A stretch of 63,735 nucleotides of DNA, counting the filler, from Lenisia limosa (taxonomy: Eukaryota > Protista > Breviatea): assembly GCA_001655205.1 (NCBI GenBank). It is 16 parts of 16 records of this genome, joined end to end, with 100 filler letters (N's around TTAATTAATTAA, not from the genome) between each part and the next. Parts side by side here need not be neighbours in the genome. Positions count along the whole stretch, not along the records: positions 1 to 2,548 come from LPNZ01001713.1; positions 2,649 to 4,304 come from LPNZ01003938.1; positions 4,405 to 6,641 come from LPNZ01006370.1; positions 6,742 to 13,481 come from LPNZ01000458.1; positions 13,582 to 18,559 come from LPNZ01007192.1; positions 18,660 to 20,025 come from LPNZ01002609.1; positions 20,126 to 22,025 come from LPNZ01001860.1; positions 22,126 to 23,680 come from LPNZ01003812.1; 8 more parts are not named here. One strand, 5' to 3'. Made by a program: the position numbers and the translations under genes. How positions within the stretch are numbered: position 1 is the first letter of the stretch; each line of letters starts with the position of its first letter. Positions 1 through 63,663 of this stretch are shown in pieces. Under the pieces are notes generated by a model. It saw only the letters and a list, made by a program, of their open reading frames with translations. It did not search any database and was not told where the DNA came from.

Positions 1-1715
1 ATAAGTTCTGACACGGATATGGGCTTTATCTTAGTTAATCGTGTCAGGACTTATCATGGTCAGTGTGCATATTATGCATGAATGATATATAGAAATGAGA
101 AATAAAAACAAGGCTGTATCTGGCCGAAGCCGTCCACACTATCACGTTAATACATGATATTGGATTAAATATTAATTCCCCCAATCATTTACCAGTAAAA
201 ATGACAGTAATAAAAGGAAGTATTTCGCAGCCCATCAGAGTTTAAAGAGAATTATAGATAGTATTAATTCAAAATTATTGCCACAGCGCTCACTGTTTCT
301 GCAAGAAGGTCAATATTCAGCGGGGGGGGGGGTAAATCAGATACAATAGATATTGTCACATGATATTCCTACTTTTGAGAAGGTGGATTTGNNNNNNNNN
401 NNNNNNNNNNNNNNNNNNNNNNNNNNNNNNNNNNNNNNNNNNNNNNNNNNNNNNNNNNNNNNNNNNNNNNNNNNNNNNNNNNNNNNNNNNNNNNNNNNNN
501 NNNNNNNNNNNNNNNNNNNNNNNNNNNNNNNNNNNNNNNNNNNNNNNNNNNNNNNNNNNNNCGGAGGAGAGGCATCCCCTTTCTTTAACTACCATTACAC
601 CCCCCCTTACAATACAGGGATTTTTCAGGAACTCGCTCTGCCGTCCAGGAGGCAACCCTCCCCCCAGCCTAGAGGATGAGCAGCTGGAATGATGTGTGCT
701 AGGAGAAATACAATATATGTGGACAATATATGTGGGCATGTATTAAGTGTTATGAATCATTCTTCCCCTCAAAATGGTATTGTGTAGAAATATTGGATTG
801 AATAGCACAGAGGTGAGAAGTCAAACGCTTACTTTTTCATGTTTGAGATCTTCTGCTCTCTCTTCTCTTTTGTTGCTCGTCTGTCTTCTTTTTTTTATTT
901 TGTTTTTTTCTCTGCTGATCTCAGACAATGTGATGTGATGAGCTCATCAGGAAGCAGGAAGAGCCTCAGCAACTTGAAAAATAAAATGGGGGACGACATG
1001 ACCAGTTTCAACATGATCGCCTTTTCGCCTGAAAAATTTGATTTGAAGCAAGCATTGTATAAACAAGAGTGTAGATTATAAAAAAGTGGAAGCGGGAGGT
1101 AGTTTGAGTTGGCAGAGATGTTTTGTTGGAGGTACGCTGTCAAGCTACATTACCACACTTCTTAAGCCTGCTTTGCACAGTAAGCCCCTCATGTTAGCTA
1201 TTCCCACTCTTTTGTTTTCTAGCGCACCCCCCCTCCCCTATCTCCTAACACATCTCTCACCAGTTTTGTTTTTTTTGTTGTGTGGAATATCCCTATTTCT
1301 TCCTTTCTTTTTTTTTNNNNNNNNNNNNNNNNNNNNNNNNNNNNNNNNNNNNNNNNNNNNNNNNNNNNNNNNNNNNNNNNNNNNNNNNNNNNNNNNNNNN
1401 NNNNNNNNNNNNNNNNNNNNNNNNNNNNNNNNNNNNNNNNNNNNNNNNNNNNNNNNNNNNNNNNNNNNNNNNNNNNNGTTATCAACCATAGTGTGTTGTC
1501 AGCCAACAGAGTTGATTATGTGTTTCATAAATGTTACATTTACTTCACACAATCCCACAGTTAGATCACTTTGCATTGTTTGCTTCAATAAATCTCTTCT
1601 TTGTTGTAGCATTTGATTTCTTCATAAGGGTCATGTTCAGTCCACAAAATTCACTCATTTTTGGTTGTGGTTATGGCATCTTACAATGACAGAGTCGGAG
1701 TGAAGCACGCCAGCG

Positions 1716-2387
1716 ATGGAGAATCGCGGAGGCTCAGAAAGTGAAGTACAGAAGAAGCGCGAAAGCGGCAGAGACATGACGAAGGAGCTGCCAAAAGCCA
1801 AACAAATGAACAATGGAGCTGAGAAGAAGCTGAATGACAAGATTCTGACTGAGGAAGTCAACTTCAAGTCACTGGAAAGCAGTGGAAAGGAAGAGTTTAT
1901 TCAGCGGCTTCTTTGGAAGAAAGACCATGGAGGGCTGACTACACAGGAGATCAAAAGCCTGAGAGGATGTCGAATATCTTTAGGGCGCTCACAGAAAATG
2001 AACCAACAAAGGAGAAGTGCTGAAGTTACTGAGAAGAAAGAAGAAGGTAGACAGTCGCAGGATGAATTTGAGAAAGCTATGCAGGTCAGCTCACAAGACT
2101 CCGATTTTGTACCCTCTCCACCAAATAAGAGAACCAGAAGGGCCTCACGAAAGCCGGTAAACTACAATCGACTTCACGAAGATTTGGATGATGAACCAAT
2201 CATGAATGAGTATCCTTATATTGCTGAGGGTTTCGTAATAAGCGGCCAGGAATATGTAGATAAGAGCGATTTAGACAACGAGGTGACAAATGCTTTAGAC
2301 GATAATGACACGCAGGCGGTGAAGGCACATCTCGATGAACAAACTCGAAAAGAAATGGAGTCTCTTGGTGAGGGGTTGGGTAAATAA
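1716..2387 (+). CDS. Hypothetical charged protein (223-aa open stretch; may be one exon of a larger gene)
   Basis: Long uninterrupted K/E/D-rich ORF with a basic cluster KRTRRASRKPVNY. No domain recognised. Confidence 0.55.
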   Translation: MENRGGSESEVQKKRESGRDMTKELPKAKQMNNGAEKKLNDKILTEEVNFKSLESSGKEEFIQRLLWKKDHGGLTTQEIKSLRGCRISLGRSQKMNQQRRSAEVTEKKEEGRQSQDEFEKAMQVSSQDSDFVPSPPNKRTRRASRKPVNYNRLHEDLDDEPIMNEYPYIAEGFVISGQEYVDKSDLDNEVTNALDDNDTQAVKAHLDEQTRKEMESLGEGLGK

Positions 2388-2775
2388 TGCTGGGGAGGTA
2401 CGCAGAAAGCTGAGCACAGAGTTGTAAGGTAAATAATTGGGTGAATTATTATTATACTATAATCCAATATCTCTATCAGCGTGATTGTGTGGACGGCCTC
2501 GGCCAGATACAACCCAATTTTTATTTCGCATTGTTATATAGTATCATANNNNNNNNNNNNNNNNNNNNNNNNNNNNNNNNNNNNNNNNNNNNTTAATTAA
2601 TTAANNNNNNNNNNNNNNNNNNNNNNNNNNNNNNNNNNNNNNNNNNNNTTGGCAAATTTTTCGAAAAAATACAAAAATAAAAAAAGAAGCCAAAATCAAC
2701 TCTGTTGGCTGTGAAAAATAAGATTAATGAACGGAAAAGGGATTCAATAAGATATTCCTGACTTGGGTAACAATC

Positions 2776-3630
2776 CTAATATAAAGAAGTAGAGGGAGGG
2801 CAAAAAGAAAAACTAAGTTGAGAGGAATAATAAATCCCACTATCTGGAAGACGACCTGAAAATAGCCCACCTTCATCACTGTCGGTGAGATACTCGGAAA
2901 TATGACCCTCTTCAAACACGGCCTCCTCCAATCGGGAAGTTGCCTGTTTTGGAAGGTTGGAGGCCGGAATTTGTGAGTTGGGACTTTCCTTATTTAGAAG
3001 AGACGCGTTGGTTGATGTTGAAGATTGAGGAGTGAATGACACAACTGATGTATCCATTGCCATTGTACCTNNNNNNNNNNNNNNNNNNNNNNNNNNNNNN
3101 NNNNNNNNNNNNNNNNNNNNNNNNNNNNNNNNNNNNNNNNNNNNNNNNNNNNNNNNNNNNNNNNNNNNNNNNNNNNNNNNNNNNNNNNNNNNNNNNNNNN
3201 NNNNNNNNNNNNNNNNNNNNNNNNNNNNACAACAAAAAAAGACAAGTAAATTTGAGTATTTAATTTGGTGGAGAAAGAGGTTAGAGTCGGTAATATACAT
3301 AATATATCATATATTAGCTATGTATACTCCAGTTCCTAAATTATGCCGTTTATCATATTTTACTTAGATTCGAAAAAAGACTGAATACTTCAATAAATCT
3401 CGAAAACTGTCGATATTTTGATGGTCTTTTTCGAACCTAGGTGAAGCCCTCTTCCAAACAACATCATAGTTCTATTCACATTTTATTTAGGAATATTTGA
3501 GATTTGACGAGGGCCATTATGACAGCTCACCAGAATGCGGAGTACCTAGGGGAACGGTTGAATTTGGCGCCAATTCAGAAGTGGCCGAAAAACTGGGCTT
3601 AGGAGGGACCTGGGTTTCCGCTTCAGATCT
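2776..3630 (-). CDS. Partial multi-exon S/P-rich hypothetical protein
   Basis: Exon after a family-A acceptor (ctcccccag|atctgaagcg, SEAETQVPPKPSFSATSELAP), and an open S/P/E-rich exon at about 2850-3070. Confidence 0.4.
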
Positions 3631-4404
3631 GGGGGAGTAAATTGGAATTTATGAAACAAAAAAAAGAAAAGCCCAAAGTCGACTATGTTGACTAGCAACA
3701 CACGTGGCTTAAAAAAACAAATCATGAAGCTGGTGAACTCAAGTTTGCTTATGATATTTTTATATCGAAGCGTGAGTGAGCCCCTAGCAGAAGTGTGTTG
3801 TGATTTTGTTTTCTAGTACCTAGGGCGTTCGAAAAAGATCGGTAACTATCGATAGTTTTCGAGGATTATTCGAGAAATTCAGTCATTTATCGGACTGAAG
3901 TGAAGCTCAACTAGCAACCCCATGTATTATTCATAAATCCCAAGATTATAACTTATATTTATCCCCTCTCCCCACAGTGCAGAAAGATCGGAAGCGGACG
4001 TTATCATGTTGTCACCCTATTCAATTAAACGGTAAATATGAAACACAAAAACACCCAAAATCAACTCTGTTTAAAGCAGACGAGGGTTGAAAACCACAAA
4101 TCAAACAAAGCCCAAGCCAGTAACCCACACCATCAACGAGTAGGAGATTTATTAAAAAAAATTTTAAAGAAATTACAGATTCAAAGTCAATCACTAAAAT
4201 TGACTTGGGCGCATCAACTTAGGAGTCTTGTGAAAACATTGGAATTCCCGTATGTTACATGGAAATCCCATGAAATTTTATGGAAATTCGAAGAAATTTA
4301 TGGGNNNNNNNNNNNNNNNNNNNNNNNNNNNNNNNNNNNNNNNNNNNNTTAATTAATTAANNNNNNNNNNNNNNNNNNNNNNNNNNNNNNNNNNNNNNNN
4401 NNNN

Positions 4405-4556
4405 CTCCGATCATACCTATCACTCCTATCACGCCTATCACTCCGATCACACCTATCATACCTATCACTCCTATTACCTAGTGCCTCTATCACTCCGATC
4501 ACACCTATTACCTATTACCTATTACTTCTATCACTCCTATCACACCTACCACTCCG
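4405..4556. repeat. Minisatellite of 7-9 bp units (CCTATCACT / CCGATCACA / CCTATTA)
   Basis: Directly visible tandem variants at a contig start. Confidence 0.9.
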
Positions 4557-11000: not shown

Positions 11001-13763
11001 CCAGGTCACCGCCTTGCCAGCGGTCCAATCAAAACCACCACTAACTCATCAACCGGACTGGGCTTGATTCTCAAAACCACTGTAGCGACCGGACCTGATG
11101 AACCTTTCAAACAGCATCCCGTGTCATATGACACTGGCAAGCTACTGAGCGAAGAGCTGGACCGGTCACACTGCAGCCCAACAATTCCCACCGTTATTGG
11201 GAACCGCAAAAGGTGAGCATTCTTGACAACTCACTCTTGTAGTTCAGCCTTTCATGGTCAAATCTTCAACATCACTCAACTTCCTCTTCATCATAGTAAA
11301 CATAACTCAATTTATCATGTGACATTTGTAGATGAACCATCAAATCAGAAATACATCCACCCTGATATCAATATAATCCATTCACCCAATAAATCCCCAT
11401 TTGTACCAGAATCCCCATTTGTTCCTGTTTCTCCAAGAGGCGTGCGCCAAACCAAGTAGGAATACTCCTTGACTGAAACCCTCAGACCCATACGCCCAAG
11501 CAACCCTGCTGCCCGCGCTTTTGTCCTTCCAACAAGAGCGTTGAGTCTTCCTCTTCCCGACAGGTTTGTTTTTTCATGTTTTTCATTCACATGCATTCCA
11601 GTCCCCAAGCTCCCCCATCTCCAATGCACTCTCCTTGGAAGAAAGACGAGAAGCGAAGCTACCCGATTGACTGTCCCTCTTCCCTTGTAGCATTTGATGT
11701 AAGTTCTTACACGTAGCTTACCATGAAGGCAACTGACAGTTCTTTTCCAAATACCTCTTTAAACCGAAAGCCACGCACACTTGCCCATGTTCGAAGGTGG
11801 GTCGGCTAACCAAAAACGGTTCTGCTCACCAATATAGCGCAAGAGCTTCAAGAGAACGAAGGAAATCAATTTCAGGTTAGACCCACATCCCCCTTTTGTG
11901 AATTTGATATTTGCAGAAGGGCTCAAGATACCACCACCAAGCATGAGCCAACAGCAGCATATTCATCCAAGGTATGTTTGAGATATAAATTTAACCTGTC
12001 AAGTTTGAAAAACTCCCCATATCTTTCTGAAGAAGAAAAAAATTATCTTAAAGGCAGTTCTGTGTAAGAAATGCTGAAAAAAGATGTCACTTTTAGAACG
12101 GCAACTTTTGGGCAACCCATCAATCTGAAAAATCTTGATATTCCATCAACCACTTTCGAAACACACAACAACCAAGGTTTGAATGTTTCTCTCATTAGGA
12201 TCACAAAGTCCAAAGGCAAAAACTCCTTTAACAGAAAAGAAGAAGCCCACTTTTTTGAAAAAAGTAAGGCTACTTTCAATTCATACCCCAGATCTCCAAT
12301 CCGTACCAAAGAAATGCCTCAAAATCAAAGCCTCAAGAGGCGTCACCATCAGTACGAAATCTGTCTATTTGAACCCATAACATCATTGCTCAGGGAAGAT
12401 ACCACCGAAACAGCCAAAAGAAGCCAGGTCTCCCGAAAGAAGCAACACCTCGACGAAGCAGCAGAGCAGCCAGTCAAATCTCAGCAAAAAGCTCTCCACA
12501 ATCAAGTTCTCCAAGTATGACTAGGTGCAGCACCTTTCAATATTAACACAAGACTAATGTTGTACAAGTGCTATTGAAATTTACAGCCTAGGACAACCCA
12601 GCCCCGCACTAGAAATCCTCATTCGATCCAGAGCAGCCACCTCCCGCGTCCATTATTCCACACAAGTCATTGGTACAACCCCACCCTGTGGTGCGGGTTT
12701 AGTTAGGCCACACTTTGATAGCAAGCCATTAAGTGACGTCAGCAAGAAAGTGGGCTTCATCAGAACACCATATGACCTTGTAGAACCAAGAAAGTGAACC
12801 ATTTCTTGATAACAAAGCAATGAATATCACAAGGGACCCTTATGTGCCCGTCATTGGTCGACCCAATTTTAAGTTGCAATAATTGTTTTCCTCTGTTTCT
12901 TTATTATTATATTAAATTAGAATAGAATAGATTATGTCCCCATCATACTTTGGAATAATATTTTAACATTGGGCAGTTGGTCCTTCTTCAGTAACCTAAA
13001 TCAAACTAGTGAAGAAAAAAAAGGATGTATTTATATAATTAAATTGAATAACTTTAGCCCCTTCAGAGCCCAGCTTACTTGCTGTTTCATGTCATCTATC
13101 AGTTAGTAGGCCACCCTTGGCAAAAGTTTGGTGATTGAAATCGTCTGTCTTCTAATGTGAAATATTGTTTCTCCTCAACGAGAAGAGGTAATAAGAGGTA
13201 AGTAAGCGAAGGCCCAATGTGACGGGGAGTAAAACGAAGGAAATTTCGATGAAGAATATTGGCGTAAACTAATCATCTGAAACTCTAAACAAACAAAAAA
13301 CAAAAAACAAGCAACAACAAACAACCAACGCAAAAACTAGAAAAAGCCATATGACAAAAACACAAAAACAAGCCCGAGCCAGCCTTCGAAGAGTCCCACC
13401 ACCGCTCGATCACCCAAACGTACCTGTAAGGCGTTAAAAAGTTGAGAACAACAAAACAAACAAAGTCCAGGCCAGTCGCTTNNNNNNNNNNNNNNNNNNN
13501 NNNNNNNNNNNNNNNNNNNNNNNNNTTAATTAATTAANNNNNNNNNNNNNNNNNNNNNNNNNNNNNNNNNNNNNNNNNNNNAATATACAGTGACCGGAAT
13601 AAGTGTTAACCTCTTTTCCTTGGTAAATCATAGAGCAAATCTGTCAAGACTTATCCCGGTTACTGTCGTCAACAGTGAGGTTGGTATTGAGTGTCTTAAC
13701 CTCCCCTTAATAGCATATCGTATGTATACATAGTATTGTACATAAACTACCCCCGGCACGCAG

Positions 13764-16204
13764 TCACACCTCCACGCTTTGTTTGCAGAGCGAAATGGTC
13801 TCCTTCAGCGCGGCAACTTCGTCGGAGGTGACAAGAGCCTGGTCGGCTTGTTTGAGTTTCGCCAGCTCGACTTGCGAATCTTGGAGCATGTGTTTGTACT
13901 AGGGAAATAAATGGGTGTGATGGAGGTGTTTGTACAGAGGGGGATAAATTGGTGTATTAATGTGTTTGTACTAGAGCTTCCCTTTCGGTTCCAAAAGCCG
14001 GCTAAATATCGATCTTTATCGGAGAGTTATCGAAGATTCAGCCATTTTTGGAACCGAATGTGAAGCTCCAGTTGATAAATTGGTTTAGATTGGAGAATGT
14101 GTTGGTAGTAGAGGAATAATGAACATACTAGAGGAGGGACACATGAGTGTATTACATTGCGGAATGCGATTTAGTTGATAACATTTAGTAATAGGGGAAT
14201 TTGTAACAATCCACACAGTGATAGACTTCAAAATAACAAAATAATAATAAAGCAGACAAAGCATAGCCCTCATCTATTTGAATAATATGCATAAAAAACC
14301 CGTCCCCCAACTAATAATCAACTCAACCGCCAGATCTCTATGATCCTTGTTTCAATAGAGACTTGACTGCAAAACAATCAACCCCCCCCCCCCCCCCCNN
14401 NNNNNNNNNNNNNNNNNNNNNNNNNNNNNNNNNAGCCGCATTGGCGCTCTACAAAATAAGGCAGGAATAGGACGCACAAGTGGATGCCAAACATACCTTC
14501 ATTAATAAGAATGATAATATTAATTGAAACATAATGGAGTTGCACAGTTCATACCTCTTTTGCTGTCAGAAATCGTTCTTCAAGCATGGTCCGAACTTCT
14601 ATTTCAGATTTTAAATCTTCTTCAAGCCTCTACAGGGGGGGGGGGGTAAAATTATGAAAGAAAAAAAAAAGGCCAAATCAACTCTGTTGGTGACAACACA
14701 CGAGAGNNNNNNNNNNNNNNNNNNNNNNNNNNNNNNNNNNNNNNNNNNNNNNNNNNNNNNNNNNNNNNNNNNNNNNNNNNNNNNNNNNNNNNNNNNNNNN
14801 NNNNNNNNNNNNAAAACACGATGATTGAAAACAGAAAAACAAAGTACCGCATCCCATCGCTCCAACAAAGCCCAAGCCAATCGCCTCTGCAGCACCGCAT
14901 CCCATCTCTCCCACGCCCACTAGTTTGCTTTCCAGCGTCGTCTCGGCCTTGTGCTTCCATTCCCTTATGATGTCACCAAGGTCGTTGGTCACTTTAGAGG
15001 CCTATGGAGAGAGTAAAATTGGAAAATTTATGAAGCAAAAAAGCCGTTGGCTGACAGCACACTATGGAGGGAGTAAAAGACAATTTTGAATCAAGAGAAA
15101 CAACAAAAAACACAAAGTATTAAAGAGTTATGAATCAATGAGGAGGAAAGTAGGAAGGGTGGAGGGAAAGTGGGGAGGGTGGAGGGGGAACAGCTTTTAT
15201 CGCGAACCAAAAAATAAAAAAAAACCCAAACAAAAAAACAAAAACGCAATAACGGAAATTTTTCAAACAAAATAAAACCCTAAACCAACTCTGCTGGATG
15301 TAGAGATGAGAAAAAATGTATATCTGGCTGAAGCATGGATATTGGATAATATATAAACTCATTTAATCATTTGCCGAAATTTCGTGAGGGTTTGATGGCA
15401 AAAGAATAAAAACAAAGCCTCACTACGCATCGACTTGGGGATTTTCATGTTTTATTTGGGTATCCCATAAAGATCTTCAAATTTCAAAATAATTACATGG
15501 GTTTCCCATGTAGATAAAGGGAATCCGAAGTCAATGCGTCCAAATACAGCGGGGGAAATTAATACAAGATATTGATTCGCAAAAACACCCCATATATAAG
15601 CTGTTTATATTTATTCCTTATATTAAGGATGGAGAGGTAGTAACTCGTTTTATAAGAGTATGCAGAAATACATATTCCCATTCCACCCTACTCGATAGAG
15701 GGAGGAGAAAGGGGTACAATAGACAATAATCCATGGATTATAGGTATTTTACACGATATAATATGCCCTAAGTTGGGCAAAGGAAAGAGGGGAGTAATAG
15801 ATGCGAGATCAGAGTTAATTTGGTGAACCTACATCTGAGGAAAACTGGGATACAATAGCGTCAGTATACTCAGTCTTGGCAAGCTCAATTTCAGAAGCAA
15901 TCTTCTCACGCTCTTCAGCAACTGCCTGGCTCACTCGTCGCTCAAGCGACTCATACAGGCTCTCTTTCTCCTTCTTAAGTTCTTCATTTTCCTTAGTCTT
16001 AGCTTGAAGCATCTGGTAGTTCTTCTGAAGCATGCTTTTCATCTTCTGATGTTTTTCTGCGAGAGAGTCGTCACTTGCTTGGGCGTGGGGCTTTTTTCCT
16101 GGTTTAACTTCTGCATCCATCGTTGATTGTAACAATAAATGGACCAAAACTGATAAAACTTGAAAACACCTTTTAACCTGTGTATTGGTCGCAGGGTCCC
16201 CCAT
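13764..16204 (-). CDS. Coiled-coil hypothetical protein, multi-exon
   Basis: Heptad-rich exons EKHQKMKSMLQKNYQMLQAKTKENEELKK..., ASKVTNDLGDIIREWKHKAETTLESKL|RLEEDLKSEIEVRTMLEERF..., YKHMLQDSQVELAKLKQ... The two exons flanking intron 14630-14920 join in phase 0. Confidence 0.65.
15424..15545. mobile_element. Family F MITE-like element (second, truncated copy at about 4205-4304)
   Basis: Inverted ends acgcatcgacttggg ... ccgaagtcaatgcgt. The copy at 4205 shares gcgcatcaacttagg and the ttccc/atg core. Confidence 0.55.
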
Positions 16205-16284
16205 TTCTTGTTTACTTAAATTGTTTTCATTATTTTGCTTCAGTCCCTTTCCAAGCCGCTTAATACTCTTTTGTTAGCAGCACC

Positions 16285-40494: not shown

Positions 40495-45343
<4,849 letters not shown>

Positions 45344-45899: not shown

Positions 45900-47990
45900 A
45901 TAATAGCTAGGCAAGCACGAGAGACACTGAAGAATGCCGAAACCCTAAGAGTCATGCCATCTGGAAGGATTAAAAAAAGCTTCAATTGCAGAAAAAGACT
46001 TGATATAAAAAATAAGGATGAATCTGGCCGAAGCCATCCATAACATCACGCTTCTCCCATTATAAATAACAATAACCCCCCTAATATTATACCCATATTC
46101 CCCAAGTAGTACCTAGGGCTTCCCTAAGGTCGGAAAAAGACCGTTAAAATATCGATATTAATCGAGGATTTATCGAGACATTCAGTCTTTTTTCGGGACT
46201 GCAGGGAACCCCTAATATTATACCCATATTCCTCCTTCCAACCATCCATCTCATCGGTGTCATTATCGGCTGTTTCTGCTCCATCAAGATAGGCCAAAAG
46301 TCCCAAGTGTCCGATTTGATTCAAAATGTCCGAAATAATGCTGACAACAGGCTAGGAGGGGGAGGGGGGAGTAAAACGAAGGAAATTTCGATTGGCGTAA
46401 AGGTATTATTCACGAAGCAAATAATCTGAAACTCCAAACAAAAAAACAACAACACCAAAAACACAATAAAAAAACACGAGCAACCAACGCTATAACTAGA
46501 AACAAAAGGAAGGTAAGGGATTAATAATGATGAGAGTAAATTGAAACAATTATGGAATAAAAAAAAGGCAAAAATTCTGTTTGTTGACAAAACACGAGAT
46601 TATGGTTTCCTTTTAAGTTACTAGATATAACCTTCCTCTTTTGGATATAACCTTCTTCTTTTGGACATACCCTAGTTTCCTCTTTTGGGCATAGGAGGGC
46701 GTCTGCCAGGCCGGGTTGGAATCGAACCGCCGAAGTGATCAGCTGGATGAAAAGGGTTCTGGGGGGGGGGGGGGNNNNNNNNNNNNNNNNNNNNNNNNNN
46801 NNNNNNNNNNNNNNNNNNNNNNNNNNNNNNNNNNNNNNNNNNNNNNNNNNNNNNNNAAATCAACTTTGTTGGCTGACAACAAACAAGGGCAAATAACATC
46901 AAAGCAAACAACGCCCAGGCCAGTCGCTTTTGCAGCATCGCATCCCATCACCCGTGATTATTTTGACATCAAACAAAGCCCATAATAGATTAATTAACCC
47001 AAAACAACAGGTACCACCTTGTTTTATATATTTCTCATTGCTAAATATAGCTATTTAATTCACCCTCCCCTCTCACTGGGTTTTGACTTGTCCTTCGCTG
47101 TCGTTGATTGCCTTTAGAAGGGGGGCCAGGCCCTTTTCTACAGGGGATCAAAAAATGAGACAAATATCACAAAATCAATAAGCCCTTTTCTACAAGATAT
47201 GAGCATGTAAACAAAGGAGCGGTAATAGCTAAGGCTTCACTTCGGTTCAAACAAAGACTGAATTTCATGAAAAATCCTCTAAAACTGTTGCTATTTTAAC
47301 GGTCTTTTCGAACCGAAGTGTAGCCCAAGTCAAAACGCAAGTAATAATTAATAATATTCCCTTCTGTACAAAATTATAGCTACAGTACTATAATCCAAAA
47401 TCTCTTATAAAGCGTGATGGTGCGGACGGCTTCGGCCATACACAACCTTATTTTTTATTTCTCATTGCTATAATACAGATCCCCTCCCACGTAATCCAGA
47501 CACAATAGAGCCCTCACAAGCGGCCAGGCGAGCGAGAAGGTCAGTGGCAATCCCAGACGTTTCGCTGGGAGAGTCCGTGATCCATTGCACGATGGCTTGA
47601 ACGCATTTCTACATAGGATTATATGGAAAACTGCTACTATACAGTTTCTGAGGTTTGGAAAAAGGACACAGTTCTATGCAGGGGTGACAAAAAAAGCCCA
47701 AAATCAACTCTGTTGACAAGCAAGAACAACAAAACAAACAAAGCCCAGNNNNNNNNNNNNNNNNNNNNNNNNNNNNNNNNNNNNNNNNNNNNNNNNNNNN
47801 NNNNNNNNNNNNNNNNNNNNNNNNNNNNNNNNNNNNNNNNNNNNNNNNNNNGGGGGGTCTCATGAAAAAGAGAGAAAATACACGGTACTCGCGTTTTCCC
47901 CTTTACGGGCAAGGCATGCATGGCTCTCGCTGCATAGTTGACCTTTTCTGACGAATCAGAATGCCAAGAATGACGTTTTGTGCTGAGAGG
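45900..47990 (-). CDS. NUP188-like scaffold nucleoporin, internal exons
   Basis: TSGIATDLLARLAACEGSIVSGL and TLFIQLITSAVRFQPGLADALL resemble consecutive Nup188 motifs as I recall them (AIQLLKRLA..MSVYACL; ILEFLTVAVETQPGLIELFL). Confidence 0.5.
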
Positions 47991-50801: not shown

Positions 50802-52101
50802 GGGCAGCAGCTCCGAAGGGTGATGCGGTGGTGGCTCCGAAGGGCGAGGTTGTGGCCGGGGCGGCTGTGGCTGGGAGGAGGTAAAACGAAGGAAATTTCA
50901 ACGAATAATATTGGCGTAATGGTACTAATCACGAACCGAATAAATCGAAACTAACAAAAAACAACACAAAAAAAAGCTGGCAAAATTGGAAGTGTAAAAA
51001 AATAAAACACAGAAGAAAAAGACAAAAAAACACAATTTGTCTTTCTGGTGGTATCCCTATGTATTTCATGTTTCCCTAGAATTTTAACATAATTATCATA
51101 TAACCCCGAATATTCTTCTTGGGAGTGGTTTTCTGAAGAGGTTTCTGAAACACGATTTTGGGAAATGAATGAGTGTTTTCCTCAACAGTAATACAGTATT
51201 TTTCTGGAACAAGATTTTTCTTGAGGAAAATTGGTCAAGGCTTACTCAGGTCAGCGTATGGATTAAAAAGGGATTTGTAGCAGTTAAGAATCTTTTGAAA
51301 CTTGGATCATGTGGAAAGTAATGAGTTTGTGTATCGATGAGAAATAAAACAAGGTTGCATCTGGCCGAAGCAGTCCACACCATCACGCTTAAAAGAGATA
51401 TTGGATTAAAGTATAATATTAATTTACCCAATAATTAGCCTCACAACCCTGTGCACACAGCTTTCCGTGATTATAAAGCAGGAAATATGATACATCTTGT
51501 TCAATATATAGATGTACATGTATGATTTTTTTGATATGCCTGTCAAAACAGCCCCCNNNNNNNNNNNNNNNNNNNNNNNNNNNNNNNNNNNNNNNNNNNN
51601 NNNNNNNNNNNNNNNNNNNNNNNNNNNNNNNNNNNNNNNNNNNATATCCCATCCAATATTGGATTACAGTATATCATTAATGCACACAGCTTTCCGTGAT
51701 TATAAAGCTGAGTCACAATACCACTTTGTCAAAAAGCCATCCAAACCATAATGATTAATTATTGAACCATCTCGCTACAAAAGATTGTTTATTCAAACGT
51801 CATGGTGAAACAGATTGGTTATACCATCATGCTTGAGATTATAGTTAAAAATCAGTTGGTTTCACTTCGTTATACTGGTCTATTGATCTGTCGCTTTAAT
51901 GTTTTCAAGAACCTAAACCACCCACGAACCTCCAAAGCTAAACGCGCCTCCAGCAGGCTTGGCCGCTGCGCCAAACGGCGATGCTGCTGTTGCTGCTGCT
52001 CCAAAGGGGGAAGCTGTTGCGGCAGCGGCTGTAGCGCCGAATGCCGGTGCCACTGTGGCTCCTGCTGCCGGAGCTGCGGGTGTTGCGCCGAAGGAGAACA
52101 T
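50802..52101 (-). CDS. FG-repeat nucleoporin N-terminus (FSFG/SPFG repeats in A/T-rich spacers), partial
   Basis: MFSFGATPAAP...APAFGA...ASPFGAA...ASPFGAAAKPAGGAFSFGGS, continuing after a family-E acceptor as TAAPATTSPFGATTASPFGAAA. Confidence 0.7.
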
Positions 52102-52438: not shown

Positions 52439-54068
52439 ATGGTAAGTTAGCTGGTCGGAGACGCAGTTTTAATCTCAATGTAGCCACCAAAGAAGGGAAA
52501 GGGAAATGATAAGTCCAGTAAGAGCGAGAAGAAGGCTCAGGACAAGATCATTGAAGACAAGACCTTTGGTCTTAAGAACAAGAACAAGTCCAAAAAAACA
52601 CAGGCTTACTGTAAAATGGTTGAACAGCAAGTCAAGCTTCAAGGAAAGAGCCGCAAGGATGTGAGCTTTGCTTTTCAATATGACCCCCTCGTCACCTTTC
52701 TCACTTTCTCTAGTTCAAACAGAAGGAAGACGAAGAAAAGGCCAAGCAGAAGAAGAAAGACGAGGCTCAGGCCAAAAAGGAGGAGTTGCGCAAGCTCTTT
52801 AAGCCGGTCGTGAAGCAGAAGGCTCCTGCTGGCGTTGATCCCAAGACTATCCTCTGCCAACTGCATAAAGAAGGCCTCTGTACCCTGGGAGCGAAGTGTC
52901 AGTTCTCTCACGACAAGTCGATCGCCCGCAAGTCTGTGAAACTTGACGTCTACGCTGATCGTCGTGATGAGGAGAAGAAGGAAGGTGAGGGAGGCCTGGC
53001 GTTTTTCAGGTCAGATACCACGGAATATCAAAATATCTTCAGATTTCCATGGATATTATTGTAAATAATGTGAATTCCAACTTTTCCTGAAGGATCCCAA
53101 GTCAATAGGCGGATAGGTATGCAGTTAGGGTATTGTTGTCACTTACAGAAAAGTTGTAAGGATTAGAGGGAATTATGAGTCAGCTTTGTAGTCACATACA
53201 TATGATGTGAAATGTAAAAATTATCTATAGCTATCTACATTTCATATATTATCAGGAATCATATTATAACGTGCACAAATATGAATATTATACTATAAAT
53301 CAATACATCTTCTAAGTTGATGAACCTTTAATATCTATTAAGTCTATATCATACAGTGACCGGGATAAGTCTTGACCTATTTTCCTTGGGAAATCGCATA
53401 GAAAATCGGTCAAGACAATTTTGGTCACTATATGTATATTCTCGATAAATCCTCGTTAAATATCGATATTTCATCCGTCTTTTGGAAGCTTGAGTGAAGC
53501 TCTTATCAAATCAATGTCTCAAATTTGTATATAATGGCGTGGACAGCTTCGGACAGATACTATTATCTAATATCGATTATAGCATCATAAGAAAGAGTAT
53601 ATTAAACATTGAGTTGCTTTTGGGCTTCCCGCTTCGTAAAAGAGGCTATCATTTTTATGATATACTAACCTCGTGTATTGTCAGCCAACGGAGTTGATTT
53701 GGGCTTTTTTTTTTGTTTATAAATTTTTCCATTTTACGTACGCTGGAGTGATGGGATGCGGTGCTACAGAAGTGACTGGCCTGGGCTTTGTTNNNNNNNN
53801 NNNNNNNNNNNNNNNNNNNNNNNNNNNNNNNNNNNNNNNNNNNNNNNNNNNNNNNNNNNNNNNNNNNNNNNNNNNNNNNNNNNNNNNNNNNNNNNNNNNN
53901 TTTTACCCCAAAGGCATGGAAGATTGGGATCAAGCCAAGCTGGAAGAGGCTATCAAGAAGAAGCACACAAGCGAGAATAAGAACAGACAAACCGACATTA
54001 TCTGCAAGTACTTCCTAGATGCTGTGGAGCGGAGGCTTTACGGCTGGTTCTGGGACTGTCCCAATGGC
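52439..54068 (+). CDS. ZC3H15: ZC3H15/Tma46 (DFRP1) tandem CCCH zinc-finger protein, 3'-truncated
   Basis: ATG|intron|PPKKGK...DKIIEDKTFGLKNKNKSKK...GVDPKTILCQLHKEGLCTLGAKCQFSHD...|MEDWDQAKLEEAIKKKH...TDIICKYFLDAVERRLYGWFWDCPNG are hallmark motifs. Confidence 0.93.
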
Positions 54069-54269
54069 NNNNNNNNNNNNNNNNNNNNNNNNNNNNNNNN
54101 NNNNNNNNNNNNTTAATTAATTAANNNNNNNNNNNNNNNNNNNNNNNNNNNNNNNNNNNNNNNNNNNNTGTTGTTATCAACCCTCGTGTGTGTTGTCAGC
54201 CAATAGTTGATTTGGGCTTTTTTGGTTCAAAAATTTTCTAATTATACCCCCCACCCCCAGGCCCACCAT

Positions 54270-55505
54270 AACTCTGCTGTCAATACCCTCCTGGCAAGCC
54301 TATCCGATTTCGACGTTGTCAGTGTCTCCTCCAATGTGGCTGTTTTGGACTTGACTAGGGTTGTCTCTGACGCATCAACTTTCCTGAGAGTGCGCGGGGT
54401 TTTTTCATTTGTTGGTTTGTTGATTGTTGTTTTGTTTTCTCCTTCTTCATTTATTCCTTCCTTCCTTCCTTCCTTCCTTCCTTCCTTTCTGCTTTTTTAA
54501 CGGCAAATAGCATCTGCGTACACAGATATACGCATTAATTTCCTGTTTATTTCATCATTTAGACTCGGTAGTTGGCCATATGATCATACCAATATGTTCA
54601 TAACATCATATTAAATCTTAGTACGTTAGTTGAATTTAGACTAATATAATTAATATCTGTTTTAAACGTATGTAATGGTGTCAACGACTTCGGCTAGATA
54701 CCTACTTGTTTTCCCGTCACTGGAATTTATCGAAATTATCAGTCTTTTTTGAGACAAAATTTAACCGTAATTTGGAGTCCTTTCCATAATCACCGCGTAG
54801 GTTTCTCCGGTTTCCACTGGGGCTCAAGTGGATATCCCCATTACCGTGACCACCACCTTTTCGTTGAACCTTTCGAGAATCGGTGCCCAGTGCTCGATTA
54901 AGGTTGGTAGGAGTATTTTCTGAGTTGTTTAGGGGTAGAGTTCTTTATTTAAGATTGGGGCAAGGTGTGTCTTTTTTCATTTAAGATTGTGATCGTTCAA
55001 GTGGGTATTTTTAAGGTGCACGTGGCGGTGCTGCAGAAGCGGCTGGCCTGGGCTTTGTTTGTTAGAATGATGGGATGCGGTGCTGCAGAAGCGACTGGCN
55101 NNNNNNNNNNNNNNNNNNNNNNNNNNNNNNNNNNNNNNNNNNNNNNNNNNNNNNNNNNNNNNNNNNNNNNNNNNNNNNNNNNNNNNNNNNNNNNNNNNNN
55201 NNNNNNNNNNNAATATCAAAAACGTTTGTATGGGTAGTGCTTCGTTCTAATCTAGAAAACGACGAGATTTCTTGACAAATCTTCGATATGTATATCAATA
55301 TTTTACCAGTCTTTTGGACCTTAGGAAAGCCCTGTGAAAGGAAGGCCCCTCCGGATTTTGCTTTTTAGTTCATAGTTTTCTATTTGTTGTCAGCCAACAG
55401 AAAAATTTTCCAATTTTACTCCCCCCAGGAACCCTTCACGAAGGTGGTTGCAAGACACTACGCAACAGTGCCTTCTTTTGCCTGGCCCTCCGAGTGGACT
55501 TTTGA
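54270..55505 (+). CDS. Partial multi-exon hypothetical protein
   Basis: Exons after family-A acceptors: AHHNSAVNTLLASLSDFDVV..., VSPVSTGAQVDIPITVTTTF..., EPFTKVVARHYATVPSFAWPSEWTFE. Confidence 0.4.
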
Positions 55506-55821: not shown

Positions 55822-58132
55822 TTACATGTCATCAATGACGCTCTCCTTCTTCTTGGTCTTGTCATCCATGTAGTACATGTCTTCCTTCTTAACCTGGAAG
55901 AGTCAACCCCCATATCTTGTTATCAAAAAAAAATCTAAAAAAATTTGAACTTCAGCTTCAAAGCAATTCACCCCCAATCACCCATCAATGTTTAAAAACA
56001 CTATCACTATCATGCAAAATTATCCAGTCATGTGAAAATGACAAACTGCCAAAACTCATGATACAATATTCAGAGTCAACGAGCTGTGTGTACTCCAGGG
56101 CTTCCCTACGGTCCAAAAAAGACCGTCAAAATATCGATATTTATCGAGGTCTTATCGAGAAATTCAGTCTTTTTTGGGACCGTAGGGAAGCCATAGTGTT
56201 CCCCCCCATCAATCCTCAAATACCCACCTTGTCGCCAAATTTCTCGAGGAGAAGATCTGGTAGATCCCACGATACGTCACCTTGGATGAGAATGTGGTCT
56301 CCAACTGCAGGGTCCTGTGGGAGTAAAACGAAGGAAATTTCGATTTAGAATATTGCCGTAAAGGTACTAATCACGAACCGAATAATCTGAAACTCCAAAC
56401 AAACAAAAACAAAAAACAAGCAATAACAACATGAGCAACCAACGCTCAAACTAGACAAAACCAGATGACAAAAACTCAAAAACAAAAACAAGCCCGAGCC
56501 AGCCTTTGAAGAGTCCTACCACCGCTCGATCACCCAAACGTACCTGTAAGGCGTTAACAATAAAATCAAAACAACAACACAAAAAAACAAAACAAAGGGG
56601 CACAAGTCAAAGGTTACTTTAAAAAAATATTAAGCTGACGGGAAAGAGAAAATGGAAAGTTACGAAACAAAATAAAGCTCAAAATCAACTATTGGTTGAC
56701 AACATAACAAACAAATAAAGCCCAGACCAGTCGCTTCTTCAGCACGTGATAAATTGAGGGGAAGGGGGGGGGGGGNNNNNNNNNNNNNNNNNNNNNNNNN
56801 NNNNNNNNNNNNNNNNNNNNNNGCGAATTTGCCAGAAAATATCTTAGCCGCATCCTTCAACTTGATACCTACGGGGAAATAACAAAAAGAAAAAAAGAGT
56901 AGTTTATCAGGCTGAAACATTCCCATAATCACATTCATGAAGCTCAACCCCTATTGCCTGCATTATTTTTTATTGTTCGTTTCCTCTTTTCTTTAATAAA
57001 TAAACCTTCCTTTAATGCAAAAAAAAAAACATCATGCAAAAGGAATACTGATTAGAATAGGAAGGATTTATCCAACCGAATTTATCCAAGCCTTGAAGAT
57101 CTGTGATGCTCTTCTTCTTTCCTCTGTTCAAACGAATGATGAGGATCTCCTTCACTGCCTGAAAGGTTGTTAAAAGAGGTAAATCATGGGTGTTAAGAGA
57201 GGTAAATCACTCATGCTCTAATGGCTAAATCATAAATAAGTCGATATTCTATTCCCCGCGCTATTTATGGTGATTTGTTTATGGTATCCCTATGAATTCT
57301 TATGTTTCCCTGATATATTTGATCTTTTTTCTTTTTAAAACCAAAACCTTCCCTCCAAAACCTCCCTACCGCTTTCACAACCTTTCCTCCGGGTAAGAGC
57401 TTATCACCCTCCTTCATGTCAATTCTCTCTGAACTGGTCAGTTTTTAAAAAAGGCATTGGTAATTGAATGTAAACGAACCCATGTGATCTGGTCCGATTC
57501 CCACTTTTGGTTTGCTGCTTGCTGTGCTCTTTCTTCTTTCCAGACACTTCTACGTCCTCAATGGCTCCAGCAAGGTGGTCTAGATGATGAAACAAAAAAA
57601 GAGTGTTTGGAGATGATGAAACAAAAAAAAAGAGTAGATGGAAATGAGACACAAATTGGCAGTAGTCCACACCAAAACATTCACAGTATAGTCCTAGCCT
57701 TCATTATCATATTTATTTGGGATAGATTGATGTGCCTATAATATTAATAACCCTATCATTTGTCATCCACTATTGCGTTCACCATCAGGTTTTTAAGAGA
57801 TAATGATGTACAGTCGAGTGATGTACTTGTTTGACAAGTTGAGTGTGGATTGATTCAAAAGACAACAACTTGCTACACAAATATAATTTGGTCAAAATTC
57901 TGTCAAGGAAGCCCAGCAAGGGCAAGAAACGCAGCAATGTGACAGGGGAGTGAAGAGAATACCTGATTTATTGTTCTTCTTGGCCCATTCGACACATTCG
58001 TCGTACTTACCACCCCATTTGCAGTACTCAAAAGGGAGGGAGCAGACTAAAACGAGTAAGACGGAAAAGGTAAAAACGCCAAAACTTACCAGGGCAGTAC
58101 TCCACAAAAACACCTCCAATACGGTCAAACAT
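55822..58132 (-). CDS. DENR: DENR/Tma22 translation re-initiation factor (SUI1 domain); start could be 58132 or 58224
   Basis: Spliced VEYCPV|CSLPFEYCKWG...CVEWAKKN, KEILIIRLNRGKKKSITDLQGLDKF|GIKLKDAAKIFSGKFA..., DPAVGDHILIQGDVSWDLPDLLLEKFGDK|VKKEDMYYMDD...*. Confidence 0.9.
56098..56193. mobile_element. Family C MITE (also ~3365, 3822, 13973, 17380, 17570, 20610, 42415, 43690, 44594, 46116, 47230, 53440, 54720, 55270, 61310)
   Basis: About 95 bp, TIR GGGCTTC(C/A)CT(A/T)CGGT(C/T)C(G/A)AAAAAGAC, internal ATATCGATATTTATCGAGGATTTATCGAGAAATTCAGTC, often flanked CTA..TAG. Superfamily not determined. Confidence 0.85.
56309..56556 (-). mobile_element. Family E intronic element, reference copy (also 13225-13440, 42010-42055, 46352-46500, 50870-50960)
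   Basis: Shared TTAACGCCTTACAGGTACGTTTGGGTGATCGAGCGGTGG...GCCAATATTC..CGAAATTTCCTTCGTTTTACTCCC(N)AG. Long copies at 13225 and 56309 align over about 220 nt. Confidence 0.88.
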
Positions 58133-59085: not shown

Positions 59086-60440
59086 ATCAACCAAACCAAG
59101 CGACTATCAGTAAAATAAAAAGGGGATTTGTATATAATATTAGAGTTCCTCCAGTTATTATGAAATATTTTTTCTGATTCTTAATTCATGTTGTAGCCCT
59201 GGATAGATTCGAGAAACCATCCCCAGATTTATTGATATATTTTCCAACCTCAACAGGTTGGGGATGTTTGCCTTGAAACCCTTCAACCCCCCGGATCTGT
59301 TCGCTCGAAGGGCGACTCAAGATGTGTTATTGAGTGAGGGTGTAATATGGTCTTATCATACAAATAGCATTCAATACTATCTCACATATATAGAACAATC
59401 CATATCAATATCAATACCATCTAACATCGTATAGAACAATCCGGAACAGACACCCATCCCGTGACGGCAGTTTCATGTTACCCCGGCCACCACGTGGTTG
59501 CCTTGGACTTCAGCATGGTGGCGTTCGATTCGGTTCGGAACAAAGGCGCACTGAGCCGTCGGTACCCGGACTTCCGATCTTCCGATGACGTGGANNNNNN
59601 NNNNNNNNNNNNNNNNNNNNNNNNNNNNNNNNNNNNNNNNNNNNNNNNNNNNNNNNNNNNNNNNNNNNNNNNNNNNNNNNNNNNNNNNNNNNNNNNNNNN
59701 NNNNNNNNNNNNNNNNNNNNNNNNNNNNNNNNNNNNNNNNNNNNNNNNNNNNNNNNNNNNNNNNNNNNNNNNNNNNNNNNNNNNNNNNNNTGATTGTGTG
59801 AAATAACATCATTCTATAATCCAATTCTTTTAGCGTGATGGCTGGACGGCTTCGGCTAGATACAACCTTATTTTTTATCTCACATTTCTATATATGGACT
59901 AGTGTAATGGTGTGTGGAGGATAATCATGCGTTTTTCTCTTTTACCCCCCCCCCCCNNNNNNNNNNNNNNNNNNNNNNNNNNNNNNNNNNNNNNNNNNNN
60001 NNNNNNNNNNNNNNNNNNNNNNNNNNNNNNNNNNNNNNNNNNNNNNNNNNNNNNNNNNNNNNNNNNNNNNNNNNNNNNNNNNNNNNNNNNNNNNNNNNNN
60101 NNNNNNNNGTTTGCAGTCCTATCAAGAATCCCACAGACAAAAACAACTATCTGGACAGGTTTGCTTTTTCGACTCTGCTGCAACCCCAGTACTATTTGGG
60201 TTTTATCAGGTCACTGCTTAATTAATTGAGACAATAAATTTGATATTTGAAGTGGGACAAACAAAAAGAGAACGCCATTGCAAACGCTTTGATTTTGACA
60301 ATTAACCATTAATTTTGGACATATTAATTGGACACTGCAGAAGCCCCTGCCTGGGCTTTGTTTTGTTTTGTTGTTCTCTTAGCCAACAGAGTTGATTTTG
60401 AGCTTTTTTGTCATAAATTGTCCAATTTTACCCCCCCCCC

Positions 60441-61520
60441 AGCACCACGGGTACCCCCATTCTAGGAGCGCGGTTCCCCCATCGAATCGCGGCGGCGGGC
60501 ATAATCCAGGCCAACCATCCAGAGTCCTATGTTCCAGGGCCGTGCCTGATGGTAGTGTTGCAAAACGCGATGGTAGGGCCCCCGTATATTACCTGTCTTT
60601 TAAATTTACATTCACAAATCCGTCTTTTATTCAGAATTTACACCCGTTCGTTCTACATTTACACCCATATAACAGATATCTAAAACATCAGATTTATACC
60701 TGGTTTTGGAGCGACAACGAAGGGTGGACAAGAACCAAAGAGACACGTCTTTTGAGAAACACGCACAACCAGGTCGGGTGGTGCGTGGTGGCTACGTTCC
60801 GGTATTGGACCGAATGATGTGATAACCCGGGAGTTTTTTTGCGGCAAAGCAATCTTTTGATAGCTAACAGAGTTGATTTCGTTCAATGGTGGAGATTACG
60901 TAATCATGGTATTTCCAATCTTTCTTATAATCGTGATGGTTTGGACGGCTTCGGCCTGATACAACATTGTTTTATTTCTTATCGCAATGTGATATTAGTG
61001 ACATTAGTTACATTTCAGGTTACAACCGTCAAATACCTGGCCAATGACTGGTTCATTTGGACTGAAAAGGACGAAAATGGTATTTGGGGGGGGGGGGTNN
61101 NNNNNNNNNNNNNNNNNNNNNNNNNNNNNNNNNNNNNNNNNNNNNNNNNNNNNNNNNNNNNNNNNNNNNNNNNNNNNNNNNNNNNNNNNNNNNNNNNNNN
61201 NNNNNNNNNTGAATTTGCTAGAGGGGGGGGCAATTGAGTCCATTCGATTTGTTAAGCTCTGCACAGGAAAATAGAATATCACTTTAGATTCTAAATACTG
61301 GATTTCTTGCAAAATCATCGAAAACTAACGATATTAATCAGTCTTTTTCGGACCTAATCACAACCATCCAGGGTCACACATGGCGCTTGCGGCGAGGGTT
61401 TCAATCACGTCCACTTCCGACACCCCCGTATACAGCCTGGCTCGGACGCCGCCGTCAGCCCCGCCGCCGCAACTGCATCATAATGGCGATCCTGACCTCG
61501 TCTGGATCTCGAGTCACCTG
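60441..61520 (+). CDS. Partial multi-exon hypothetical protein
   Basis: GC-rich exons after C-tract acceptors (TTGTPILGARFPHRIAAAGIIQANHPESY..., VTTVKYLANDWFIWTEKDEN). No family recognised. Confidence 0.35.
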
Positions 61521-62249
61521 GGTACGGTCGAGGGGCTTGGTGGTTCTGTTTTCTCCTTTAAATTGAGAANNNNNNNNNNNNNNNNNNNNNNNNNNNNNNN
61601 NNNNNNNNNNNNNNNNNNNNNNTTAACTATCCAGGCGTGTATTCCTTCATTTCAGGTCAGCAGTTTCTGGGCACGTTGCCCCCGTCACCCCCAGGTACGG
61701 ATTGCCTCATCTTAAAATAGGTGCTATTGATAGAAGCAGGTGTTTCATCATAGAAATAAAACAAATCGAAAAGGTAAAATCGTGTAAAATACGTTGATTT
61801 AGTAGAAAATAGAGAGGTGCTATTTCTTATTAGGGAGGGGAGGGGGNNNNNNNNNNNNNNNNNNNNNNNNNNNNNNNNNNNNNNNNNNNNTTAATTAATT
61901 AANNNNNNNNNNNNNNNNNNNNNNNNNNNNNNNNNNNNNNNNNNNNCCGTGTGGGGGTGTAAGATGGAGGGAATATTTCTATTCGAACTCAAAACCCTGT
62001 TTTCGCTGCCATGAAAATAATCACAAAACAACAATATATGATATGTTTAATAAGAGTGTTTGCATAACTTTTTTCACCCGTGGTGGATGGTGTGGATGAA
62101 ATAAGCTGGAGGAAAGACTTGGGGGGTAATTTGTTCCTCATCCTCACTGGGCATTATTTGTTTTGTTGTTATCAACCCTCGTGTGTTACCAGCAGACAGG
62201 GTTGATTTTGAGCTTCTTTTTTCATAAATTATCCCATTTTACCCCCCAG

Positions 62250-63663
62250 AATGACCATGAAACTCCACATTCTGCTCTACTTGCACCCTTGGATGGACAA
62301 CTTGGCAGCCCTCCTATGTCCGCCAACAACATCAGCTACTTCGGCTAGGTTGGGGGNNNNNNNNNNNNNNNNNNNNNNNNNNNNNNNNNNNNNNNNNNNN
62401 NNNNNNNNNNNNNNNNNNNNNNNNNNNNNNNNNNNNNNNNNNNNNNNNNNNNNNNNNNNNNNNNNNNNNNNNNNNNNNNNNNNNNNNNNNNNNNNNNNNN
62501 NNNNNNNNNNNNNNNNNNNNNNNNNNNNNNNNNNNNNNNNNNNNNNNNNNNNNNNNNNNNNNNNNNNNNGTTGATTTTAGACTTTTTTTTGTTTCATAAA
62601 TATTCCAATTTACCCCCCCCCCCCTAGAGCAAGAGCGGTAATCGAGGAGCTGCTGAAGGCGCAGGTGCAAGAAAGCCGACTCACTAATTCGTTCAAAGAC
62701 AACGTGGGGTAGATTATGAGGAGGTTTTGATCCAACAGAGTTGATTCTGGGCTATTTTTGTTTGTTTGTTTCAAAAATGTTCCTTCTATACCCCCCATCA
62801 AATTATTCTCTTTTCACCTCCCAGATCTGGATTCCTCTTGGCAAGTCACAGCACTCCCTCCTCGCAGTTGCCCGCGTCCTTCTCGATGTAGGCTTAAATA
62901 TATACAGTGACCGGGATTAGTCATGACCTATTTTCCATTGGAAGTCACATAGCAAAACGGTCAAGACTATCCCGGTCAGTGTATATGATATAATATTTGA
63001 TTTTTTACTGTATACGTGTATAATCTCTTTTTGGATCGAATATGTGTGCTTAAATATATCTAATATACATATATACTATCATATGTTTATGTACATAACT
63101 AGGTATAACTTTTTGAGCCATTTGTCAAAGATGTGTGCTAAAATATATCCATTATCAACAGGCCTTTTTTTGTTTCATAAATATTCCAATTTTACACCCC
63201 CCCCCNNNNNNNNNNNNNNNNNNNNNNNNNNNNNNNNNNNNNNNNNNNNNNNNNNNNNNNNNNNNNNNNNNNNNNNNNNNNNNNNNNNNNNNNNNNNNNN
63301 NNNNNNNNNNNNNNNNNNNNNNNNNNNNNNNNNNNNNNNNNNNNNNNAACTCATCCCTTCCGTCGCGGGGGATAATTCTGCTATTATTGGTGAGGGGGGG
63401 TCAATTTCGGAAATAACTTGATAAAAGTTTTGTATTTTTGATGTGGATTGAAGAGAACACTGTTGAATAAAAATGGGAAATAACTTTTATAGTTAACAAT
63501 TAACTGATCCAATAGTTGACATTTACAAAACATATTACAGTTGGCAACAGCATACTCACACTCCAGTTGGCGAGCTGCTCCGTCTCCTCCAGAACCTGCT
63601 TTCTGACGTCTCTTCAAAGGCTTTCAAGAGCAGACATTGGCCCAAGATTCACGCTTGTGTCAG
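62250..63663 (+). CDS. Neurofibromin (NF1/Ira)-like C-terminal HEAT region, internal exons
   Basis: MKLHILLYLHPWMDNLA...R|ARAVIEELLKAQVQESRLTNSFKDN|IWIPLGK...LL and RTCFSD...HWPKIHACVR parallel NF1 motifs as I recall them (LKHLCLEYMTPWLSNL, RVTAILDKLI...IQAKIWGSLGQ, KTCL...WDDIAILAR). Confidence 0.65.

Follow-up and report, generated by a model that had tools for sequence, protein, structure and literature searches.

Introns of unrelated genes that carry copies of a single repeat at their 3' ends raise the question of whether the repeat made these introns or entered introns that already existed. We addressed this question in a stretch of 63,735 nucleotides (nt), filler included, from Lenisia limosa (assembly GCA_001655205.1), hereafter the window, in which such a repeat, hereafter family A, had been noticed from the sequence and interpreted either as an introner-like family or as an element taking over existing 3' splice sites (acceptors). 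This original prediction is partly supported by the analysis, which indicates that A is mostly not an introner and supports acceptor takeover.

The window joins 16 pieces through 15 identical linkers (the first at 2549-2648, the last at 61847-61946), each a 12-mer with stops in every frame flanked on both sides by 44 N, and gene continuity across linkers is not assured; the remaining N runs often adjoin G/C runs or A copies. Family A was identified via self-comparison and profile searches with head, short body/tail and long tail profiles, and exon models of the host genes were made by hand from GT-AG introns and open frames. Gene direction was taken from these exon models, from RNA pieces for NKAP, and from homology for ZC3H15 and a CoA-disulfide-reductase/NADH-oxidase gene only, as 16 of 18 exon fragments had no Pfam match and one further fragment yielded weak matches only. 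The names NKAP, DENR, NUP188-like, NF1-like and Hydin, in part carried over from the original prediction, are putative. A small predictor of spliced genes failed to recover the RNA-checked NKAP structure and was not used further. DNA contigs derive from sequencing run X1 and RNA contigs from a polyA run (X2), whose contig 8 is the NKAP transcript, with five pieces listed.

Profile searches returned 50 module matches to family A in the window (14 heads, 29 short bodies or tails and 7 long tails), spanning 2,957 nt (5% of the non-N bases) and distributed over 29 modelled introns, which bears out the description of a high-copy repeat in unrelated genes. Real copies scored up to 92 bits with the first profile, compared to 11.2 bits for the best match on 10 shuffled windows, and the 14-mer quoted when the repeat was first noticed had 14 matches at two or fewer mismatches, versus 0.8 expected. 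Median pairwise identity among copies is 70% (205 pairs). The proposed agreement in orientation with the host gene was also upheld, with all 45 matches of at least 13 bits, the threshold for the strand count, in the sense of the host gene and 0/45 antisense, whereas control family D (of the type at 56085-56196) shows 7 copies on the same strand and 12 on the opposite one. The last A copy lies at most 22 nt from the acceptor in 19 of 24 assessable introns, the 3' end being cut by a gap in 5 of the 29, versus 2 of 33 copies of control repeats B, C and D (p = 1e-8); acceptors in these positional tests, all within the window, come from the exon models, and some control intron ends are approximate. 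The three acceptor junctions quoted in the original prediction are in frame in the exon models.

The opposite ends of these introns tell a different story. A donor is visible in 20 A-bearing introns, two of which have a gap soon after it, and in 17 of the 18 with a readable 5' part the donor and the first 21-955 nt are unrelated to A. Introners have been defined by similarity near both intron ends, with secondary insertions filtered out, in a recent survey (bioRxiv 10.1101/2022.06.06.494994, Gozashti et al.). Such similarity at both ends occurs in 1 of the 18 introns (14630-14920), which is the only candidate left for the proposal that A creates introns. The A loci in the window are as follows.

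1478..4121: A1 copies at 1478-1538 (plus) and at 2714-2650, 3716-3630 and 4121-4035 (minus), each in host sense
13222..13481, minus strand: second composite of A1 head and A2, about 70 nt from the modelled acceptor
14630..14920, minus strand: near-whole A1 intron with two heads, a gap and a tail, the head match starting 10 nt from the donor
15002..15078, minus strand: 5'-truncated A1 between two 17-nt acceptor ends (15078-15062 and 15018-15002, 16/17 alike)
16967..17082, plus strand: A1 located 137 nt upstream of acceptor 17219, its start directly behind an acceptor-like AG at 16968
20136..22025, minus strand: CoA-disulfide-reductase/NADH-oxidase gene with three A1 copies, their ends at acceptors 21896, 20790 and 20136
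23534..23596, plus strand: A1 tail at acceptor 23596
42003..42236, plus strand: end of NKAP intron 5, with A2 tail, A1 fragment and an 18-nt duplicate comprising the acceptor and 9 exon bases
42999..43217, plus strand: array of A2 tail, A1, A2 tail and A1 head in NKAP intron 7, its end in a gap
43466..43596, plus strand: end of NKAP intron 8, with A1 fragments and a duplicate of the acceptor and 5 exon bases
44340..44457, plus strand: A1 at the NKAP intron 10 acceptor, the exon restarting at 44458
46352..46953, minus strand: A1 copy that includes its head (46953-46856), followed by an A1 fragment and an A2 tail that reaches acceptor 46352
50871..50974, minus strand: A2 tail at the acceptor of an FG-repeat gene
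53667..53913, plus strand: two A1 copies in head-to-tail order at the 3' end of ZC3H15 intron 52985-53913
53738..53792, plus strand: A1 head with full 5' end, its GT directly behind the TTTTAC of the preceding copy and its body lost in gap 53793-53900
54169..55428, plus strand: A1 at acceptor 54260, and two heads (55025, 55065) with a tail at acceptor 55428
56315..56543, minus strand: complete A2 of 229 nt from GT to AG, with an acceptor-like AG before it and no exon between, ending at the DENR acceptor
60335..63205, plus strand: A1 copies at or near acceptors 60442, 62249, 62627 and 62824, and before the gap at 63206

The distribution between genes is patchy: 23781-36032 and 4405-13200 (~21 kb) contain intron-rich genes, mostly with short introns, and no A copy.

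In three of 25 introns the host acceptor is duplicated around the A insertion over 15-18 nt, with exon bases (5 and 9) included in two of the three, and two of the three duplications are carried by DNA contigs without differences. At 15002..15078 the upstream AG would read into a stop, and the two acceptor copies are present without change in DNA contigs 7 and 8. The duplicates at the end of NKAP intron 8 (43466-43480 and 43582-43596) are alike at 14 of 15 positions, and since no A precedes the upstream acceptor copy at 43466, this copy looks like the original acceptor of the host. Those of NKAP intron 5 lie at 42047-42064 and 42219-42236, the downstream AG at 42227 being the one whose use fits the RNA length (DNA contig 3, RNA contig 8). 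In RNA contig 8, exons with acceptor 42227 explain 216/216 nt of one interval, to which the duplicate acceptor at 42055 would add 172 nt. The next interval, of 472 nt, is accounted for by exons with acceptors 43591 and 44457 (429 nt) plus 43 nt in an N gap, which keep the reading frame; the duplicate acceptor at 43475 would overshoot, so the length arithmetic again places the used AG downstream, at 43591. These lengths, which are arithmetic on one contig and not junction reads, fit the use of three A-associated acceptors (42227, 43591 and 44457) by NKAP. For 14630-14920 and acceptors 15002/15062, three RNA contigs cover only the head and no exon, an absence of cover and not counter-evidence. 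Position, orientation, duplicated host acceptors and NKAP RNA lengths are hence all in line with the second branch of the original prediction, an element taking over existing acceptors.

Two subtypes with homologous heads, A1 and A2, make up the family. A1 (~150 nt) runs from a GT (53738) through a G-rich head, a T-rich body with a weak hairpin, the hexamer TTTTAC and a variable C-run to a terminal AG, and the 229-nt A2 (56543-56315) starts at the same GT (head homology score 14 versus a shuffle mean of 5.2, p = 0.0003). We read TTTTAC as a putative branch site from its position, because non-A NKAP introns have a YTNAY-like motif at the corresponding place. The GT start is seen at 53738, at both A2 copies and in one DNA contig junction, and the 14 nt before it are common to the two A2 copies (56543 and 13423). 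Both of these start at AG/GT with no exon between, an arrangement resembling a recursive splice site. By hand count, gap-cut copies excluded, some 22 copies have a tail with partial or no head, versus some four heads without tail: the family has a fixed 3' end and 5' truncation, as do elements that move by target-primed reverse transcription (TPRT). Copies stack head-to-tail, and a 7-nt imperfect inverted repeat, seen in the sequence, links head and tail. Neither the GT start of the full unit nor the prevalent 5' truncation, the arrays or the two subtypes figured in the original prediction.

Summed read depth at 14880 is 153,483, versus about 31, which suggests thousands of heads as an order of magnitude, not as a copy number. 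X1 contigs from other loci, 56 and 28 of which run past the tail with a consensus C-run followed by AG, indicate that the 3'-end pattern is not confined to the window. A pyrimidine-rich flank lies ahead of the head in 31 contigs, and 10 of the 15 joints listed (54 in total) connect tail to head at varied points, one of them with GT directly behind TTTTAC as at 53738. In the window, a C-rich flank precedes 9 of 34 module starts, several of which are internal starts, versus an intron background of 11% (p = 0.012). An exact search with the head returned no match in metagenome contigs. A conserved RNA fold was considered and set aside: fold z-scores range from -3.6 to +1.5, falling below -2 in one of seven A1 pieces and in none from A2, and the central 5-bp stem, 84% paired, shows no compensatory change, which amounts to a weak fold without covariation and short of a stable structure.

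Intron 14630-14920 is the sole one that is A almost end to end. The original prediction described it as consisting, where unmasked, essentially only of the element; two heads and a gap take the place of one plain copy. Its GT lies within 2 nt of the expected start of a full copy, and its first 9 nt score 3.5 against the head, a value equalled or exceeded by 4 of 28 other donors. Possible readings of this intron are a true gain, an intron of source type and an old intron of very short length. The CoA-disulfide-reductase/NADH-oxidase gene (20126-22025, minus strand) has at least five introns and 18 protein matches that look prokaryotic, on account of which its introns probably postdate a transfer from prokaryotes. 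In one of them the first 122 nt are not A, and its origin therefore does not require A. Another observation in this gene is an intron with a 200-nt tandem duplication (21340-21742).

TPRT characteristically leaves a fixed 3' end, truncated 5' ends and duplications of varying length, and an RNA with a GT start and an AG end reads as an excised intron. The explanation we favour, to which we assign about an even chance, is reverse copying of excised-intron RNA into C-rich acceptors of introns already present, where the downstream acceptor takes over; both the RNA template and the enzyme are inferred. The C-run-AG end of such an RNA, for which any C-rich acceptor would offer 7-8 nt of pairing on its template strand, would anneal to the template-strand G-run at a nicked acceptor and prime reverse transcription by a borrowed enzyme. 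Copying would end early, leaving a 5'-truncated copy, or at the GT of the intron, and second-strand repair would duplicate 0-18 nt of the acceptor and exon start. The downstream acceptor, fed by the branch motif of A, would then win and the upstream one be skipped, while every insertion would rebuild a target and so give rise to arrays. Intron gain would at most be a rare side effect. Pairing with C-rich acceptors would explain strand, position and self-targeting together. A more far-reaching form of this idea, which we regard as tentative, is that A is an excised spliceosomal intron turned retroelement that homes to 3' splice sites, primes itself with its C-run-AG end, and has, probably in thousands of introns, rewritten both branch point and acceptor, with an occasional new intron such as 14630-14920. 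Rolling-circle copying of one lariat or circle was ruled out as the main route by the heterogeneous tail-head junctions.

Several observations weigh against reverse copying into acceptors. No reverse transcriptase or autonomous partner was seen in the window, and most of these marks would also be expected from DNA template switching. The claim that the end of A is the acceptor, sustained in 19 introns, does not extend to the other 5 of 24, where the last copy lies 28, 36, 70, 80 and 137 nt away. Duplications of the target, variable in length (0-18 nt), are clear in 3 of 25 introns only; 22 lack a clear one, about nine of these having a flank in a gap, and the permutation test for the duplications (p = 6e-5) was designed after the three cases had been seen. 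The GT start is based on few copies. Run X1 is possibly the source of the window itself and hence not independent, and consensus agreement past the tail is low (0.45 and 0.41). Regarding the age of the host introns, only ZC3H15 loci were compared, almost all of them intronless or transcripts: an intron at the A site is present in 0 of 80 loci, a figure that is uninformative since only about 4 of the 80 are split at all and transcripts make up many of them. The best named ZC3H15 matches, 58-73% alike, are scattered across eukaryotes with no close relative among them, and a homolog search with ZC3H15 exon 3 scored none of 591 candidates.

The sense orientation, fixed 3' end, variable 5' length, duplications and chimeric arrays could also arise without any RNA or element enzyme, if replication or repair stalled at the G/C run of an acceptor, switched by microhomology to the C-run of another intron, copied leftward over a variable length and returned, sometimes re-copying the acceptor, with the commonest neighbour being amplified. 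The sequence upstream of the GT that both A2 composites have in common, as well as the little stable structure of A and its lack of any RNA-family or tRNA match, would suit such a DNA-templated process, but under it the GT start of full copies in both subtypes has no explanation, many different intron ends should have spread, and no common exon sequence was seen upstream of the heads; we consider such a process unlikely. Spliceosomal reverse splicing, in which a lariat enters behind the AG of a pre-mRNA or of R-loop DNA and generates stacked introns (AG/GT) that are fixed by recombination and lose their 5' part through decay, matches the GT-to-AG unit, the AG/GT before A2 and the strict sense orientation. 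Nested and buried introner copies and the same model are described in PMC3879977, and post-splicing catalysis in PMC10996645. Reverse splicing nonetheless predicts neither the varied 5' truncation, nor the junctions behind TTTTAC or within the C-run, nor the duplicated exon bases, and appears improbable.

A classical introner, inserted into exons to make introns whose 5' parts were later replaced or expanded, would carry both splice signals, as A does along with its 7-nt imperfect head-tail inverted repeat, and would account for 14630-14920, nearly all element with its GT within 2 nt of a full-copy start, and for the three copies in a prokaryotic-looking reductase gene with introns probably younger than the transfer. 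Set against this, 17 of 18 donors are unrelated to A, the first 9 nt from 14920 match the head no better than other donors do, older acceptors persist upstream of copies, and the flanks before heads are pyrimidine-rich and not exon-like, leaving this reading very improbable. DNA-transposon introners of the type of miniature inverted-repeat transposable elements (MITEs) have terminal inverted repeats, two intact ends and a duplication of fixed length; A has only the 7-nt imperfect repeat, with the head absent in most copies and duplications of 0-18 nt. High copy number and the presence of other small repeats in the same introns would be compatible with an ordinary MITE or short interspersed nuclear element (SINE) inserting at random, selection retaining the copies that rebuild an acceptor. 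Selection should, however, tolerate antisense, mid-intron and intergenic copies, and 0/45 A matches are antisense while D is mixed. The head shows no derivation from tRNA, 5S or 7SL RNA, having no Rfam match at gathering score and no ARAGORN hit, and at E up to 10 Rfam gave no match to A within 53600-56800. RNA polymerase III would moreover be stopped by T-runs that A carries near the beginning of its sense strand. Random insertion of a SINE or MITE is largely refuted in the window and retains the faintest of chances.

Several known systems resemble family A. Among non-autonomous non-LTR retroelements, Alu elements mobilized by L1 through TPRT are primed by pairing of their RNA tail with the target strand, cluster in the tails of earlier copies and have duplications of variable length. 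A shares with them the fixed 3' end, 5' truncation and insertion into the tails of earlier copies and, under the favoured explanation, tail priming; duplications are clear in a few of its introns. In A, both tail and target are a C-run-AG and not poly(A), and the unit is intron-like and not an RNA polymerase III transcript; Alu provides acceptors in antisense and thereby new exons, whereas A replaces a working acceptor in sense. Like A, introners form families of similar sequences that carry splice signals and lie within the introns of unrelated genes, and in some of them a splice site is included in the target duplication (bioRxiv 10.1101/2022.06.06.494994; PMC12130899). In 17 of 18 introns, by contrast, A extends to the 3' end alone, for which reason the pipeline of the 2022 survey would discard it. 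The introner elements of Micromonas (PMC3879977) are likewise restricted to transcribed regions and in sense, and RNA-level mobility has been proposed for them; they are mostly whole introns at new positions, however, and the 32 remnants buried in conserved introns, together with some nested or merged copies, are a small minority, whereas for A insertion at the 3' end of another intron, with 5' truncation, is the rule. Fungal introner-like elements and sister stwintrons (PMC3609843, PMC12403724) resemble A in being intron-shaped and non-coding with a short inverted repeat near both ends, but they are whole introns at new positions with stable predicted folds, while A folds weakly. Post-splicing circle formation has been put forward as a route to transposition (PMC10996645), and RNA-based mobility, by a mechanism still unsettled, for introner families without transposon marks (PMC10996645; bioRxiv 10.1101/2022.06.06.494994). 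No family targeting and replacing 3' splice sites was found in the literature covered, which excludes most subscription papers.

Other repeats share the introns of A. The original prediction held that the MITEs and family D follow no strand rule. D indeed shows none (7:12) and family B is palindromic, but copies of family C (of the type at 58978-59085) are sense-biased as well (13 same, 2 opposite, p = 0.007). Family B is MITE-like (5650-5734, 37101-37184, 50476-50560 and 5 more) and family D a hairpin (56092-56191 and 19 more). Family C sites (58915-59085, 2387-2541, 51328-51465, 43901-44011 and ~13 more) lie inside introns and not at acceptors. In its long form a donor-like GT sits directly behind an acceptor-like AG (58928; likewise in one RNA contig), and C may be a second intron-shaped mobile family. 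An A head at 4102-4135 (minus strand) has a start resembling the core motif of C; a common origin of the A and C heads was considered and is not significant (p = 0.30). The donor regions of two introns contain short tandem duplications (46620-46690, minus; 44536-44575, plus), and an intron in the 3' untranslated region of NKAP (45346-45554) begins one base past the stop codon, consistent with the RNA contig.

The marks expected of RNA-based copying (intron-like ends, truncations, duplications and junctions) are preserved in A at high copy number, making the question of intron copying testable within one genome. Family A illustrates how the 3' splice signals of a genome can be reshaped by a repeat that brings in no new introns, and families of this kind would escape surveys requiring similarity at both intron ends. 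If A is indeed an excised intron turned retroelement, it would constitute natural evidence for RNA-templated intron transposition and would represent a type of splice-site parasite removed by the filters of introner surveys.

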